A stretch of 64,000 nucleotides of DNA from a virus (Duplodnaviria > Caudoviricetes), in the IMG/VR virus record IMGVR_UViG_3300021963_000022; one strand, written 5' to 3'. A program made the translations under genes and the position numbers. Below the pieces are notes generated by a model. It saw only the letters and a program-made list of their open reading frames with translations, was not told where the DNA came from and did not search any database. Shown one piece after another: positions 7,290-13,372 of this stretch. Within the stretch, counting starts at the first letter, position 1. Each line of letters opens with the position of its first letter.

Positions 7290-7760
7290 ATGTGGATAAT
7301 ATCTATTTTACCCGAATGGGCTTTTCATCTAATTCTCACAGTGGGAATTATAGGCACGGTTGCTGGATTTGCTTTGGGCATGATTCCTGCAATCAAACAA
7401 TATAAAATACCAATTCAAGTCATTAGTTTACTTGTACTTTCTTTGGGATTATATCTAGAGGGCGGATTAGCTGACTATAAAGAATGGGAAGCTAGAGTCA
7501 AAGAGATGGAAGCCAAAGTAGCCGTAGCTGAAGAAAAAGCTAAAACTGTGAATGTGGAAGTACAAGAAAAGATTGTTACGCAGACTAAAGTTATTAGAGA
7601 AAAAGGTAAAGACATAATCAAGTACATTGATAAAGAAGTTGTAAAAACTGAAGAAGTTATCAAGTATGTTGAGAATTGTCCTGTACCTAAAGCAATCATT
7701 GATATACACAATGACGCCGCAATACTAAACAAAGCCGCTGAACCAAAGGACAAGAAATGA
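7290..7760 (+). CDS. inner-membrane spanin (Rz-like)
   Basis: N-terminal TM segments, coiled coil, C-terminal CPVP..IHNDAA; followed by a lipoprotein gene. Confidence 0.7.
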   Translation: MWIISILPEWAFHLILTVGIIGTVAGFALGMIPAIKQYKIPIQVISLLVLSLGLYLEGGLADYKEWEARVKEMEAKVAVAEEKAKTVNVEVQEKIVTQTKVIREKGKDIIKYIDKEVVKTEEVIKYVENCPVPKAIIDIHNDAAILNKAAEPKDKK

Positions 7761-8023
7761 AAGCATTGATTATATCATTAGCAATTGTTCTTGCAGGATG
7801 CAGTACCACTGTACCTGTTGCTAGAAAGTTTCCTGAAGCACCTCAAGTTCTTAAAGAAAAGTGCGAAAGACTTAAACTCATAGAGGGTGACAAAGTAGCA
7901 ATTACAGAAATGTTAAAAGTTATCGTACACAACTATTCGTTATACCACGAATGTTCTACAAAAGTAGAAGGTTGGCAAGAGTGGTATGAAACACAAAAGA
8001 AAATCTTCAACGAAGTCAAATGA
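7757..8023 (+). CDS. outer-membrane spanin lipoprotein (Rz1-like)
   Basis: Signal peptide with lipobox LAGC, Pro-rich PVARKFPEAP, Cys residues. Confidence 0.75.
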   Translation: MKALIISLAIVLAGCSTTVPVARKFPEAPQVLKEKCERLKLIEGDKVAITEMLKVIVHNYSLYHECSTKVEGWQEWYETQKKIFNEVK

Positions 8024-8277
8024 AATATACCATACTACTCGTATCTTTAATGATTTCGGGATGTGCTAGTAAGGATTATTCTGTGTATGTAGAAGCACAG
8101 AAAGCTATATCCAGAGACATTACTGTCACCGAAACTACTCGTATGCTAGCCATATCGGAGATGTTAAAAAGTCCCGATCCTAGTGTTAGACAGAACGGGA
8201 CTTTATTACTACAACAGTTACAGCAATCTAGACAACCTGTTGTAATTGAATTACCTAAGAATATATTTGGATTTTAA
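8020..8277 (+). CDS. second predicted lipoprotein
   Basis: MKYTILLVSLMISGC lipobox-like signal peptide. Confidence 0.7.
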   Translation: MKYTILLVSLMISGCASKDYSVYVEAQKAISRDITVTETTRMLAISEMLKSPDPSVRQNGTLLLQQLQQSRQPVVIELPKNIFGF

Positions 8278-8714
8278 TTACACCAAGAAGTCTTAGCTTC
8301 TCCGTAGTACTCACGTGCAAAACCCTGCTGGATAAGCATTCCTCTAAGACTTTTGCCGTCTAAAATAACATCACCCAAAACACGTCCGCCGTACTTATCC
8401 CAGTCTATTAGTATAATTTGCTTCTTTTGTGCATTAGCAATTTGTTGTTTTGTGAATGCACTAGCAGCCTCTCCGCGCTGTGCTTCACTTGGACATTGTG
8501 CTCTATGACCCTTCTCAGGAGTATCAACACCAAATACACGAATACTTAGTTCGGGTTTTAACGGCGCCGGCAAGAACGGTGCTTGAAATGCAATTGTGTC
8601 TCCATCGATAACTCTAGTAATCAATGCATCATATGTCACCCCTGCTTTTTGTTTTTGAGCAAACGCAGTAGTTGTCAAAGTGGATAATAGTAGTATAGAT
8701 ATAAGTTTTTTCAT
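8274..8714 (-). CDS. secreted thermonuclease (staphylococcal nuclease family)
   Basis: Signal peptide MKKLISILLLSTLTTTAFA, then VIDGDT, IRVFGVDTPE and DKYGGRVLG motifs. Confidence 0.88.
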   Translation of the reverse strand: MKKLISILLLSTLTTTAFAQKQKAGVTYDALITRVIDGDTIAFQAPFLPAPLKPELSIRVFGVDTPEKGHRAQCPSEAQRGEAASAFTKQQIANAQKKQIILIDWDKYGGRVLGDVILDGKSLRGMLIQQGFAREYYGEAKTSWCN

Positions 8715-8765: not shown

Positions 8766-9563
8766 ATGACCCAAGAAATCATTGACATAGGCGAATTAGC
8801 TAATGACGGTACAGGTGACCCGTTACGTGTTGCCTTCGACAAAATCAATAACAACTTTACTCAATTATATAATACTGCTTCAGTAGATGGACCCAACGGT
8901 TCAGTACAATTTGCATTAGCAAATACAGTAGGAAATGTCACTACCTATTCTTTATCATCAAGTGCTAATTTGGTATTTAATTCTAGTACTAATCGACTTG
9001 ATATTAAAGGAACAATTGTTCCTTTAGTCCCAAACAATTTAAATATTGGTTCTACTGCTAATACAGTAGGCAACTTATACCTGAGTAATACAGGGTTAAA
9101 GTTAGGAAATGTATCATTTTCTGAATCTGCCAATACAGTAAGAATATTCAACACAAATGCTAATATTGATGCTAATATACAAGTTAATACAATAACCGCA
9201 TCTACTGTAGATGTAGCACAGATTGTTATTGCTAACACGCAATTTGATGGTAGTATTGCGACCAGTGAAGGGTCAGATCCCAATCAAGTGATATATCAGC
9301 TCCCTGAAACAAGTATACTTTCTGGTAAATTTGATATTAAATCAGTATCAGATACTTCTGCTAATAATCAATCAGTAACAATAACGATTAATAAATCTAC
9401 TTCGGGTGGAAGTGTTAAATATGTTGTATATGGAACAACATTTAACGGTGACCCTGTAACTAGATATGATGTAGATGTGGCATTCGGTAATGTTCGTATC
9501 AAAGTTAACCCATTGGTTAATGATCTTATTACGCATACTATATCTTATCAAGTAACAAACTAA
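8766..9563 (+). CDS. baseplate/fibre-like structural protein with T4 gp9/gp10-type N-terminus
   Basis: IDIGELANDGTGDPLRVAFDKINNNF motif; Asn/Thr-rich beta-type body. Confidence 0.7.
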   Translation: MTQEIIDIGELANDGTGDPLRVAFDKINNNFTQLYNTASVDGPNGSVQFALANTVGNVTTYSLSSSANLVFNSSTNRLDIKGTIVPLVPNNLNIGSTANTVGNLYLSNTGLKLGNVSFSESANTVRIFNTNANIDANIQVNTITASTVDVAQIVIANTQFDGSIATSEGSDPNQVIYQLPETSILSGKFDIKSVSDTSANNQSVTITINKSTSGGSVKYVVYGTTFNGDPVTRYDVDVAFGNVRIKVNPLVNDLITHTISYQVTN

Positions 9564-9564
9564 C

Positions 9565-9948
9565 ATGAGAGCTAAAGAATTTATTAACGAGGGTCGTACT
9601 GGCTCTATACAGGATGATGTAGCTAGAGCACTGCCCTCCACATATGCCATTCCTGAGTTAAAAGGTCAAGATCCATATATTCAATATAGATTTGGTGTAG
9701 CAATTGCAGGCGCTAAAGGTTCTAAGAAACGTGCGGAAGACGGTGTACCTAATTTTAGCAAAGAAAGTGCTTGGGGACAAAATCAAATTGTTGTAAGTTT
9801 TGACCCTTCTATTGATGAATGGTTGACCGATGCATTAAAAATCATGGGCATCAAAGGTAAGAAAAGATTAAGTACCATACACAGCGAAGAAGCTGATGAT
9901 GTGTCTACAAAAAGCCCTGTACAGGGGTTTAAAGGGTTTAAAAAATGA
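9565..9948 (+). CDS. putative internal head protein (CTS-like N-terminus), tandem copy A
   Basis: Starts MRAKEFINE, ends SPVQGFKGFKK. Confidence 0.7.
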   Translation: MRAKEFINEGRTGSIQDDVARALPSTYAIPELKGQDPYIQYRFGVAIAGAKGSKKRAEDGVPNFSKESAWGQNQIVVSFDPSIDEWLTDALKIMGIKGKKRLSTIHSEEADDVSTKSPVQGFKGFKK

Positions 9949-10313
9949 GGGCTTCCGAATTTATATTCGAAAATAGTAAGGGTAAAATATCTAAACGTCA
10001 ACAAGAGTCTTCACGTGGACTAAACATATTTGCCGATAATCAATTTGATAGAACATATGATTTGAATCGTGTAATGATGGCAGTTGCCTGTAGTGATGGC
10101 ATCAATCCTATTGATATGAACTCTGAAAGCTGGTTTGGTAAAAATAATACAGCACATCCTTATACCAAAGAAGAACAAGATATGCTAAAATTAGCATACA
10201 AAGCTGCCGGTATAACTTATAAAGATTTAAATAAGGCTGATCTAAGAAGTAAAGAACTAGACAGTACATACAAAACAAGCCCAATAATTGGGTTTAAAGG
10301 CTTTAAAAAATAA
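9945..10313 (+). CDS. putative internal head protein (CTS-like N-terminus), tandem copy B
   Basis: Starts MRASEFIFE, ends SPIIGFKGFKK. Confidence 0.7.
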   Translation: MRASEFIFENSKGKISKRQQESSRGLNIFADNQFDRTYDLNRVMMAVACSDGINPIDMNSESWFGKNNTAHPYTKEEQDMLKLAYKAAGITYKDLNKADLRSKELDSTYKTSPIIGFKGFKK

Positions 10314-10364: not shown

Positions 10365-11057
10365 ATGATCGATATTAACAACACCCTAGACCTCGTCAAA
10401 CTTAAATTCTATAATGAATGGCTATATACAGCACACATTTATGATGAGGGTGAATCTACGTTCCATAAACAACTAACAACTAAAGTTGTAATCGATTATA
10501 TAGATCCAATTAAATTAAAAAAAGATGCACTTATTTTAGACTTAGGTTGTGGTCCGGGTTATTTCTTAGATGAAATGAAAGAAAGAGGGTACACTAACTT
10601 AGTCGGTGTAACTCTTAGTCCAAATGACATTGACCTATGTAAGAGTAAAGGGCATAAAGTTAAAGAATACGATTTAAGCTTCTTACCACAGAAAGAAGGG
10701 TATTATGACGAATCGGTTGATTTTATCTTTTTGCGACATGCATTAGAACATAGTCCATATCCTATCTTTAGTTTAATGGAATATAATCGTATATTAAAAC
10801 AAGGTAGTAAGATTTATATTGAAGTGCCCGCCCCTGATCAGGAACGTAAGCATGAATATAACTTAAATCATTATAGTATTTTAGGTACTGCACAGCTAGC
10901 GGCATTACTTGAAAGAACTGGATTTACTATTGATACGTTTAATACAATGGATTTTACGTTAAATGTTGGTAAAAACGATGAAGATAAAGATATTGAAATT
11001 TCAGAAAGATATTTCTGTATTGTAGCTACAAAGCAACGTCCGCTGGATATTAAGTAA
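10365..11057 (+). CDS. class I SAM-dependent methyltransferase (substrate unknown)
   Basis: Motif I ILDLGCGPG, DFIFLRHALEH, RILKQG..YIEVP; no DNA-MTase DPPY/NPPY or PC motif seen. Confidence 0.85.
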   Translation: MIDINNTLDLVKLKFYNEWLYTAHIYDEGESTFHKQLTTKVVIDYIDPIKLKKDALILDLGCGPGYFLDEMKERGYTNLVGVTLSPNDIDLCKSKGHKVKEYDLSFLPQKEGYYDESVDFIFLRHALEHSPYPIFSLMEYNRILKQGSKIYIEVPAPDQERKHEYNLNHYSILGTAQLAALLERTGFTIDTFNTMDFTLNVGKNDEDKDIEISERYFCIVATKQRPLDIK

Positions 11058-11075
11058 AATTCTACTAAATATATC

Positions 11076-11354
11076 ATGACCTTTGATATATGGAAACAAT
11101 CTAAAATACAAAATGGTCTTGAAAATATCAAGACCGTTTCCTTACCCGCTGTTGCCTCTGACAATATTGATGAGATGAAACGTTTAGCAGGGATACCCTC
11201 TACTCAATCCGATGTAGGAATGAACATGAGTGTAACTGGCACCCAAAAGGGCGAATTAATGAAGAAGAATAACATTCAGCCGGGAACACCTGAATGGTTC
11301 AAGTTATGGTTTAGTTTACCATATATGACTGGCGAAAAGCCTATAGGAAAATAA
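11076..11354 (+). CDS. late hypothetical protein
   Basis: TAAATA at 11066-11071, 4 nt before ATG; contains MKRLAGI and PGTPEWFKLWF. Confidence 0.75.
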   Translation: MTFDIWKQSKIQNGLENIKTVSLPAVASDNIDEMKRLAGIPSTQSDVGMNMSVTGTQKGELMKKNNIQPGTPEWFKLWFSLPYMTGEKPIGK

Positions 11355-11355
11355 C

Positions 11356-11784
11356 ATGGCCACTATAAACATAACGGTACAGAGTTTGCTCAATGCCGCA
11401 CAATATGATAGTTATGCAGTAGATAATGCAGGAACTATCGGTGAACTTAAAAATTCTATTGATGCTACTACAGGTTGCTTAATAGGTTGGTTTGATTTAG
11501 TATTCAATAATGAAGTATTAGATACCGCACAAACAATCAGTTCTTACGGTATAGTAGAAGGTTCAAGATTAAGAACTCATAATAAAATTTCACGATTATC
11601 TACACTACAAGATAGACAAGTTGCAAAACTTAGTTTGGCACAATTAGAAAGACTAGACCTTTCAAATACTAGACCATACTATAATATAGATGAACTGCCT
11701 ACCAAATATAGTGGTAACAGTGTTGTAGATAATTCTCATCCTACTGGATTGATTGAAGGTCGTCCGTGGAATAGCACTCCATAG
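11356..11784 (+). CDS. ubiquitin-like (beta-grasp) domain fused to a ~65-aa C-terminal domain
   Basis: Residues ~4-73 align by hand to ubiquitin with one small gap ([90 protein letters not shown]). No C-terminal GG. Confidence 0.75.
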   Translation: [142 protein letters not shown]

Positions 11785-11810
11785 TAAATTCTATATCGTA
11801 ACCAAAATTT

Positions 11811-11818
11811 TATAAATA
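11811..11818 (+). promoter_or_regulatory. T4-type late promoter TATAAATA (representative of a window-wide family)
   Basis: Exact T4 late consensus, 6 nt before the terL ATG. Related (A)TAAATA boxes precede genes at 7278, 8738, 11066, 13379, 16309, 30035, 33245, 35917, 36400, 37355, 39203, 42379, 44786, 49942, 52454, 56121, 57965, 58783, 59304 and 62713 (+), and at 8722, 29998, 47143 and 52398 (-). Confidence 0.8.
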
Positions 11819-11824
11819 CGCAAT

Positions 11825-13372
11825 ATGAGCGGAACCCCTACCTTAATCAAAACACCTTATACAAAGACAAAGTTTAATTCTGATAAAGAGCTAGAAGATT
11901 TTGTTAAATGTTGTGATCCTGAAATGGGTTATCTATACTTTATGGATAACTTTTTTTACATACAACATCCTACAAAAGGTTCTATGCTGTATCACCCCTG
12001 GGATTATCAAAAACGGTTAATACATACATATCATACCTATCGCTATTCAATTAGCTTGATGCCACGACAAACAGGTAAGTCAACATCAGCCGCAGGGTAT
12101 CTACTTTGGTATGCTATGTTTGTACCGGATAGTACTATTCTTATTGCGGCACACAAATACACAGGTGCACAAGAGATTATGCAACGTATTCGTTATGCGT
12201 ATGAGAACTGTCCCGATCACATTAAAGCAGGTGTAACAACATACAACAAAGGCTCACTAGACTTTGAGAACGGATCACGTATTGTTAGTGCTACAACTAC
12301 AGAAAATACAGGTCGCGGTATGTCTATTACACTATTATACTTGGATGAGTTTGCGTTTGTTCGACCTACAATTGCTACAGAATTCTGGACATCTATTACT
12401 CCTACATTAGCAACAGGTGGTAAAGCGATTATCACTAGTACTCCTAATAGTGATGAGGATCAATTTGCTTTGATTTGGAAGGGTGCTAATAAAACAGAAG
12501 ATGAGTTTGGTGATACCACCGAGCTCGGTGTTAACGGTTTTAAATCATACAGAGCATTCTGGCAAGAGCATCCTGATCGTAATCAAGAATGGGCTGACCA
12601 GATGAAGGCCCAGTTAGGTGAAGACAGATTTAGACGAGAGATTGGTTGCGAGTTCATTATTGCAGATGAGACATTAATTGCCCCTACTAGGTTAATTGAT
12701 TTAGATGGTATCGAACCTGTATTCCGTCAGGGACAGATACGTTGGTATAAGAAACCTGAAAAGGGGAATATCTATATAGTTGCACTAGATCCTGCTGTCG
12801 GTACAGGTGGTGACAATGCCGCAATACAGATTTATGAAGCAAATACTACGACACAAATCGGTGAATGGAAACATAATAGAACAGATATACCGTCACAAAT
12901 TAAACTGATAGCACAGATTAACAAATACATTGTTGAATGTACTACTCAACCAGACAATTTATACTATAGTGTAGAAGTCAACGGAGTAGGCGAGGCCGCC
13001 CTAGTATCATTGAACGAATATGGTCTAGCTAACATACCTGGATCTTTCTTAAGCGAGCCGGGCAAAAAGAAACGAGGGTTCAATACAACTAATAAGAGTA
13101 AACTAGCAGCCTGTTCTAAGTTTAAAACATTAGTTGAGAGTAATAAGTTGACTATTAACAGTCGTAGTTTGGTAACAGAACTTAAAAGTTTTGTAGCCTC
13201 AGGTGGTAGTTATGCCGCAAAAATAGGTGAATCAGACGATTTGGTAACGTCTTCATTGTTAGTTGTGCGTATGTTACAGAACTTAAGTGAATATAACTAT
13301 GATTTAGATAACTATATTCGTGACCATGATGAAGTAATTATGCCCTTACCTTTCTATGCCATAATGGGATAA
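11825..13372 (+). CDS. terL: terminase large subunit (T4 gp17-like)
   Basis: LMPRQTGKS Walker A, LLYLDEFAF Walker B, FRREIGCEF, nuclease ALDPAVGTGGD and DDLV; no intein. Confidence 0.95.
   Translation: MSGTPTLIKTPYTKTKFNSDKELEDFVKCCDPEMGYLYFMDNFFYIQHPTKGSMLYHPWDYQKRLIHTYHTYRYSISLMPRQTGKSTSAAGYLLWYAMFVPDSTILIAAHKYTGAQEIMQRIRYAYENCPDHIKAGVTTYNKGSLDFENGSRIVSATTTENTGRGMSITLLYLDEFAFVRPTIATEFWTSITPTLATGGKAIITSTPNSDEDQFALIWKGANKTEDEFGDTTELGVNGFKSYRAFWQEHPDRNQEWADQMKAQLGEDRFRREIGCEFIIADETLIAPTRLIDLDGIEPVFRQGQIRWYKKPEKGNIYIVALDPAVGTGGDNAAIQIYEANTTTQIGEWKHNRTDIPSQIKLIAQINKYIVECTTQPDNLYYSVEVNGVGEAALVSLNEYGLANIPGSFLSEPGKKKRGFNTTNKSKLAACSKFKTLVESNKLTINSRSLVTELKSFVASGGSYAAKIGESDDLVTSSLLVVRMLQNLSEYNYDLDNYIRDHDEVIMPLPFYAIMG

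Follow-up and report, generated by a model that had tools for sequence, protein, structure and literature searches.

An integral ubiquitin-family domain in a protein of uncultured jumbo phages, with probable ties to the tail-fibre apparatus

Phage structural proteins can carry accessory adhesion domains, and fibre-tip adhesins such as gp38 of phage T2, whose gene lies downstream of its fibre gene, join an attachment part to exchangeable carbohydrate-binding or Ig-like parts. Ubiquitin-like (Ubl) beta-grasp domains have been known in phage tail assembly since 2006, and those are ThiS/MoaD-like. The TAPI proteins (gpI) of lambda and T1 consist of such a domain and a small C-terminal domain, are encoded beside the host-specificity gene J, and are reportedly not found in the mature tail (PMC1779556). 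On the bacterial side, the central tail fibre of phages is the target to which Bil systems attach a Ubl (bioRxiv 10.1101/2023.09.04.556158).

The phage protein considered in this study differs from the TAPI proteins in that its beta-grasp domain is recognisably of the ubiquitin family, and the domain is a conserved feature of a clade of T4-related jumbo phages from lake, river and estuary metagenomes. I will refer to the domain as U, to the conserved module that follows it as A, and to the gene and its product as U-A. The window is the whole stretch of viral DNA that was analysed, 64,000 nucleotides (64 kb) in length, and its relevant features are listed in Table 1. Its large terminase subunit (TerL) is 49% identical to that of the PA5oct-like Pseudomonas jumbo phages, which identifies the window as part of the genome of an uncultured jumbo phage, a distant relative of these. 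Freshwater, lake and estuary metagenomes, and some labelled as marine, together from at least 13 studies (possible source samples excluded), contain DNA nearly identical to positions 10365-13372, so the phage is widespread.

Table 1. Positions of U-A, its parts and neighbouring features in the window.
Feature	Coordinates	Strand	Basis or remark
U-A gene, 142-aa two-domain protein (P0001)	11356..11784	+	ATG start, TAG stop; stop codon included
U: ubiquitin-family beta-grasp domain, residues 1-76	11356..11583	+	PF00240, family profile, AF2/Foldseek, VIA
A: conserved module of ~65 aa, residues 77-142	11584..11781	+	Occurs without U; folds alone
w92: upstream 92-aa gene	11076..11354	+	Synteny in relatives
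TATAAATA, T4 late-promoter consensus	11811..11818	+	6 nt 5' of the terminase ATG, inside the 40-nt spacer
Large terminase subunit, T4 type	11825..13372	+	Pfam Terminase_6N/6C; phrog_36964 E 1e-111
265-aa baseplate-wedge/tail-fibre connector-like (gp9-like) protein	8766..9563	+	phrog_677 E 6e-13

The far part of the upstream region encodes, in order, a thymidylate synthase, a sugar epimerase, two lipoprotein-like ORFs, a nuclease and the gp9-like connector; nearer to U-A, the connector is followed by two small paralogues, a methyltransferase, w92, U-A itself and the terminase. Downstream of the terminase lie a gene for a virion structural protein and then gp32, UvsX and UvsY. The connector-like gene belongs to the same small island as U-A and is syntenic in two related loci, L008 and L024. 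The island as a whole is nonetheless a mosaic (methyltransferase, terminase, recombination genes) and no clean tail module. U-A begins one nucleotide past the TAA of w92, and its stop codon is separated from the terminase gene by 40 nt, in agreement with an earlier note on this DNA made from its letters alone (below, the sequence-only reading), which had placed the gene 1 nt after its upstream neighbour and beside the terminase. No second U and no second A is encoded in the 64 kb. In the region 7757-8277 (+) / 8274-8714 (-), a pair of neighbouring small ORFs encode signal peptides of the lipoprotein type, in which a Cys follows a hydrophobic stretch, and a secreted SNase-like nuclease is encoded on the strand opposite to them, an arrangement kept in the related loci L094 and L095.

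The sequence-only reading had also considered the gene upstream of U-A to be driven by TAAATA and U-A to be a late gene. This part is not confirmed: the six-mer carries no weight, the longer consensus TATAAATA is under-represented, with 3 copies in 64 kb vs 10 ± 3 expected, and a generic scan for sigma-70 promoters and terminators gave nothing above chance on the + strand. Judging from the copy of TATAAATA just before its ATG, the terminase may have a start signal of its own. In two metatranscriptomes, all exact contigs fall within the terminase gene; U-A has none. In three consecutive spacers (10312, 11058 and 11787), those before the methyltransferase, w92 and terminase genes, a stop codon is followed by the heptamer AATTCTA. 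Its other occurrences in the window are mostly within genes, and it is not a general motif.

Residues 1-76 of the ORF at 11356-11784 are a genuine ubiquitin-family domain, with a resemblance well beyond chance. The window protein matches PF00240 over residues 20-72 (E-value 1.2e-5); its 25.4 bits coincide with the gathering score and so suffice for membership of the family. Relatives score 33.7 and 44.1 bits, the four related IMG/VR records searched gave one match apiece (up to 44 bits), and none of 14 control prokaryote genomes reached the cut-off. A profile constructed from 36 U domains of the family, when run against the PDB, found chains of mono-ubiquitin at E-values from 6e-10 to 2.6e-9 (around 1e-9, about 41 bits). 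The AF2 model of the U-A protein, built on an alignment of 34 sequences (pLDDT 92, pTM 0.79), has a beta-grasp in which the elements follow the ubiquitin order, b1-b2-a1-b3-b4-3(10)-b5. The best 50 Foldseek matches to this model in the PDB are ubiquitin, ISG15, NEDD8 and other Ubl chains, without exception. Single-domain ubiquitin chains superpose with a TM of about 0.9 and an rmsd of 1.1-1.5 Å, at 24-25% identity, and VIA, an aligner independent of Foldseek, gives a Z of 14.7 to ubiquitin. The ubiquitin fold proposed in the sequence-only reading is borne out on every one of these counts.

The correspondence extends to individual residues. The HMMER alignment, in which the query position is the ubiquitin position plus 5 over ubiquitin residues 17-68, pairs V22, I28, L31, I35, L48 and F50 with V17, I23, V26, I30, L43 and F45 of ubiquitin, and L55, I61, Y64, I66 and L72 with L50, L56, Y59, I61 and L67. 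K32 is paired with K27 and is at least 90% conserved across the family. The sequence-only reading had aligned the same hydrophobic core positions and K27 by hand and counted 17-18 identities in about 70 positions; the structural alignment gives 18-19 over 76 columns.

It was also right that the domain has no C-terminal Gly-Gly and is fused to a tail of about 65 residues. The LRLRGG of ubiquitin is aligned with LRTHNK, after which the chain runs on into A, and U, permanently fused and devoid of the Gly-Gly, is not conjugatable. There is no conserved Gly at the junction of U and A, where N76 and I78 are invariant. Also invariant are W45 and the extended b1-b2 loop (VQSLLN), while V49, aligned with I44 of ubiquitin, varies in the family. 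On the alignment, the VQSLLN loop, W45, N76 and I78 map round the side of the ubiquitin fold that bears its C-terminal tail, which is where A begins. Since the conserved face is at the junction with A and the equivalent of I44 is variable, the alignment suggests that the conserved face of U holds A and binds no outside ubiquitin receptor.

Among 1.84 billion representative sequences, those that come nearest without belonging to the family are multi-ubiquitin proteins of the eukaryotic type. In the viral structure library BFVD, too, the matches of ubiquitin-like kind come from viruses of eukaryotes, whose viral ubiquitins make up nearly all the named entries among the best 50, the family's own members aside. 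The origin of the domain is put in question by these eukaryotic affinities.

Module A comprises a long helix and a small beta-hairpin, with the motifs RQxAKLxL and LPTxYxGN and an invariant GRPW, which in the window protein forms the C-terminal end. Homologues of the U-A protein number 153 in one database and 267 in a representative set at 50% identity, and every member of the family comes from a phage or a metagenome; the contigs that bear them reach 381 kb. Stand-alone U-A is the most frequent architecture (138 of 269 sequences), and 31 others have U-A with a C-terminal extension. The C-terminal domain also occurs without the Ubl, a point that the sequence-only reading had left to a survey of homologues: A is followed by a C-terminal extension in 50 of the 269 and stands alone in 17. 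Without U, it is found at the very N-terminus of longer proteins, including lectin-bearing ones, or as a protein of its own of 68-108 aa. The C-terminal extensions are lectin-like (Laminin_G_3, PA14/GLEYA, ILEI, SPRY, Gly_rich_2). At one locus (L093), whose TerL is 81% identical to that of the window, a protein made of A, an Ig-like and an ILEI-like domain, without U, occupies the same site between w92 and TerL; U is therefore an optional N-terminal addition to A, the constant core of the family. An A-domain tree has at least seven gains or losses of U, of which only two are forced by well-supported branches, the tree being too short to resolve their frequency. In one metagenomic protein of 452 aa (P0130) the usual order is reversed, and U-A stands C-terminal to a repeat-rich, beta-helix-like region of 315 residues.

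Folded alone, A gives a model with a pLDDT of 90. Comparison with the PDB turned up no structural relative of A (best Z by VIA 2.7; nothing by Foldseek at E ≤ 0.001), and a fold search of AFDB returned only small proteins of the same family. The models in BFVD of one U-A-ILEI protein and of one 139-aa U-A protein fit the whole U-A model, with TM values of 0.94-0.96 and an rmsd of 1.3-1.5 Å over 139-141 columns, and A-only GLEYA proteins in BFVD superpose on A. Because these independent predictions agree on the arrangement of the two domains, the prediction is that U and A make up a single rigid unit. There is one A per record in four IMG/VR genomes, among them a complete one of 359 kb, which also has a single ubiquitin domain.

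The family has gone largely unlabelled. Its UniProt entries are nameless or called after their lectin part, and PHROGs, NCBIfam and PADLOC contain no match to the U-A protein. Neither a tblastn search with the protein against 50,697 phage records nor a megablast search with the locus found anything, and no cultured phage carries the gene. PA5oct and Phosso, the nearest cultured relatives by terminase, have no U-A-like gene beside terL. A scan of 185,579 genomes of prokaryote species found no relative of U-A, and full-text searches of the literature found no paper on the family or on PF00240-type domains in tailed phages.

In order to assess the company that the gene keeps, I tabulated its neighbours in about 80 IMG/VR loci and in loci fetched by identity. 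At most of the roughly 80 loci, the U-A or A gene directly adjoins (at -1 to +10 nt) a gene whose product is a fibre-like protein of the virion and variable, or sits among tail-fibre-like genes. The patterns fall into three lineages. The one linked to the terminase has the order methyltransferase, w92-like gene, a gene of about 90 aa, U-A, a protein of 320-770 aa, and TerL. The second has U-A followed by the same type of partner and then by a different structural gene. In the third, U-A lies between proteins with matches to tail-fibre or tail proteins, near a gene resembling that of the tail sheath. The partner of 320-770 aa (L003 8444-10666, L005 8424-10739 and about 55 other loci) is composed of a conserved N-terminal peptide, repeats of the GNVNIPG type and a variable C-terminus; the peptide, of about 40 aa, keeps 50-75% identity between members in which repeats and C-terminal domains have been exchanged. 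Of the C-terminal types, one gives a match to phrog_1645, "virion structural protein", at E 7e-106; T4-like cyanophages have this type of domain too, in a virion structural protein encoded between terS and terL. The recurrent companions of U-A are thus fibre-like virion proteins, and the terminase is its neighbour in one lineage only.

Within the terminase-linked lineage, w92 is conserved upstream of U-A, either next to it or close by, and is present in L093, L094 and L095. It has no match in Pfam, PHROGs, NCBIfam or PADLOC, and its C-terminal end is a conserved I-Q-P-G-T-P-E-W-F-K-L-W-F motif. L007 has another copy of w92 between the fibre gene and TerL, which suggests that the block made of the 90-aa gene, U-A and the fibre gene is a cassette placed between w92 and TerL. 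From the position of that second copy, directly before the terminase gene, as though it were part of the packaging genes, w92 could be a small-terminase-like partner. The gene of about 90 aa that precedes U-A in most relatives (L003 6707-6979, L005 7702-7998) begins with M-R-A-T-E-F-I-R, and the proteins of L003 and L005 are of one family (hhalign probability 100%). It is absent next to U-A in the window. The two small paralogues of the window, at 9565-9948 and 9945-10313, start with MRAKEFINE and MRASEFIFE and so resemble the N-terminus of the 90-aa protein; these N-termini also recall the capsid-targeting sequence of T4.

A single-copy core, interchangeable carbohydrate-binding domains and fibre-gene neighbours together fit a surface-exposed component of adsorption. 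I therefore lean towards reading U-A as an accessory protein of a tail-fibre or adhesin module that has an integral ubiquitin domain, and I hold this to be probable, though not strongly so. According to this proposal, the protein would be a constituent of the virion, and A would be its working core, docking it onto a conserved partner in the baseplate or the fibre. The free ends of A would serve, as they do in relatives, to carry exchangeable surface domains, sugar-binding folds on the C-terminal side and the ubiquitin-family domain on the N-terminal side. U would be an integral domain, never cleaved and never conjugated, that is predicted to pack rigidly on A. If this is so, the new 65-aa module would be a fixed handle for exchangeable sugar-binding domains and would bear on host recognition by uncultured phages. 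Three observations speak against the reading: the lectin and the fibre partner are both missing from the locus in the window, nothing of known function resembles A in structure or sequence, and the island around the gene is a mosaic.

The first of these objections concerns the minimal form of the cassette, which in the window, L094 and L095 consists of w92, U-A and TerL, with no lectin and no adjacent fibre gene. The N-terminal peptide of the fibre partner is encoded nowhere in the 64-kb window. Contigs from two independent metagenomes, one of a lake and one of an estuary, bridge the junction of U-A and TerL with at most one difference, and the minimal form is therefore no artefact of assembly. 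As the window has the shortest architecture and is devoid of the partner gene, one might suppose that the cassette has lost its fibre and lectin and that U-A is a functionless leftover in decay. I consider this very unlikely. The U-A proteins of L094 and L095 are 95% and 87% identical, respectively, to that of the window, the frame is intact in all three diverged genomes, and dN/dS (window vs L094 and L095, from few substitutions) is about 0.2 for both U and A. Moreover, the residues invariant in the family are all present in the window protein, and its architecture, stand-alone U-A, is the commonest of all. The minimal U-A is kept under purifying selection in the window phage and its two closest relatives.

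The position of U-A invites a different interpretation. In T4, the gene for gp16 is directly upstream of that for the large terminase subunit. U-A adjoins TerL in the window and in L094, L095 and L008, and no small terminase was identified among the ORFs examined, so that U-A might be a packaging accessory or the small terminase itself. In most relatives, however, a fibre-like gene stands between U-A and TerL (in L007 along with the second w92), and in other lineages U-A is carried far from the terminase, among tail genes. Fusions to lectins are incompatible with such a function, and U-A has no terminase-family match in Pfam, PHROGs or NCBIfam. Taken together, these facts leave a role in packaging with hardly any probability.

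More serious consideration is due to an assembly factor like gpI of lambda, which would help the fibre or the tail tip to fold or to attach and would then leave the virion. U-A has the same layout, a Ubl with a small C-terminal domain, and in most relatives it is immediately upstream of a fibre-like gene. Nevertheless, lectin-like domains on A suit a displayed protein better than a chaperone, and the lineage of the window keeps U-A under selection without a fibre gene. Nor does the sequence argue for kinship: there is no match of the PF06805 type (Lambda_tail_I) in Pfam at E ≤ 1, no conserved terminal Gly, and no JAB or NlpC partner in relatives, and TAPI is ThiS/MoaD-like, while U is, by profile search, ubiquitin-like proper. 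A gpI-like factor seems to me unlikely, with a chance that is small but worth keeping in mind.

The sequence-only reading had offered two functions for the domain, a module for interactions in the virion and a decoy or inhibitor of Ubl-based defence. The former has gained from the lectins attached to A and the fibre genes beside it, and is continued in the accessory role preferred here. The latter has found no support. It would have U-A as a non-conjugatable mimic of ubiquitin that blocks the E1, E2 or DUB of Bil or the Cap2/Cap3 of CBASS, or that shields a site on the fibre; put in evolutionary terms, a clade of phages would have built a domain of the ubiquitin-proper type into the tail-fibre apparatus against Bil-like tagging, so as to mask the tagged site or to trap E1, E2 or DUB. 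What recommends the idea is a true ubiquitin fold in a protein that belongs to a fibre-linked module, the central tail fibre being the very target that Bil tags (bioRxiv 10.1101/2023.09.04.556158). Yet U is dispensable at the same locus in the close relative L093, proteins with A but no U are common, and the invariant part of the family is A and not the Ubl. An E1 would have no free C-terminal tail to adenylate, and the most conserved residues of U are on the side predicted to pack against A, not on the I44 patch, where V49 varies. By sequence, U is closest to eukaryotic ubiquitin itself. ThiF-type E1, JAB and Prok-JAB are absent from the complete 359-kb relative and from three partial ones. 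E2 domains (UQ_con, Prok-E2_B) had no match in the related records either, in searches that are uninformative because control genomes were also without a match. There is no match in PADLOC at E ≤ 0.1, a weak argument, since PADLOC represents defence and not anti-defence proteins. Both the mimicry itself and its adoption by the clade as an answer to tagging strike me as very unlikely, about as much so as a decaying remnant.

For these reasons I favour a plain structural role, that of an accessory of the fibre or adhesin module, over an interplay with Bil. Still, as Bil attaches its Ubl to the tail fibre, a ubiquitin fold that is linked to phage fibres is a testable candidate for such an interplay, and if the countermeasure were real, U-A would be the first phage-encoded ubiquitin mimic in the arms race around bacterial ubiquitin-like systems.

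How, then, does U-A compare with what has been described? It resembles eukaryotic ubiquitin in its match to PF00240, its beta-grasp topology, an identity of about a quarter, and the retention of K27 and the hydrophobic core. In arrangement it is like the UBL domains of Rad23, Dsk2, BAG1 and parkin, which are N-terminal parts of a longer chain, have no Gly-Gly and are not processed, and U may be counted as an example of an integral UBL domain from a prokaryotic virus. Unlike ubiquitin and these domains, U is encoded by a phage, its invariant b1-b2 loop is longer by 5 residues, and the position of I44 is variable. Unlike the eukaryotic UBL proteins, it is joined to A, for which no relative is known, and no proteasome or ubiquitin machinery is in sight.

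Other viruses also encode members of the ubiquitin family: the v-ubi of baculoviruses, the ubiquitins of giant viruses and the inserts of pestiviruses. These are mostly conjugatable and belong to viruses whose hosts possess a ubiquitin system, in contrast to U-A, whose phage presumably has a bacterium as its host. The Ubl modifiers of Bil/Bub systems have in common with U that they are beta-grasp proteins of the prokaryotic world linked to phage tail fibres. They are, however, encoded by the host, free-standing, terminated by Gly and found in an operon with E1, E2 and DUB, whereas U is phage-encoded and fused, with no E1 or JAB-type DUB in the complete related genome.

Among phage proteins, TAPI shares with U-A a Ub-like beta-grasp joined to a small C-terminal globular domain, and a gene beside a fibre gene, as in most relatives of U-A though not in the window. 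Its Ubl is of the ThiS/MoaD kind, with a terminal Gly that is conserved and a link to a protein of the JAB+NlpC/P60 type (gpK). U is unlike it in being ubiquitin-like proper, without the Gly, a peptidase partner or any match in sequence, and in its setting in a jumbo phage of the myovirus type. T2 gp38 and the accessory adhesion domains are related to U-A neither in sequence nor in fold, and the likeness is one of organisation, a conserved part with exchangeable parts beside fibre genes, in which A would take the role of attachment. U-A thereby brings together known kinds of protein, those with integral ubiquitin-like domains and the Ubl-bearing morphogenesis proteins of phages, and joins them to a module that is new.
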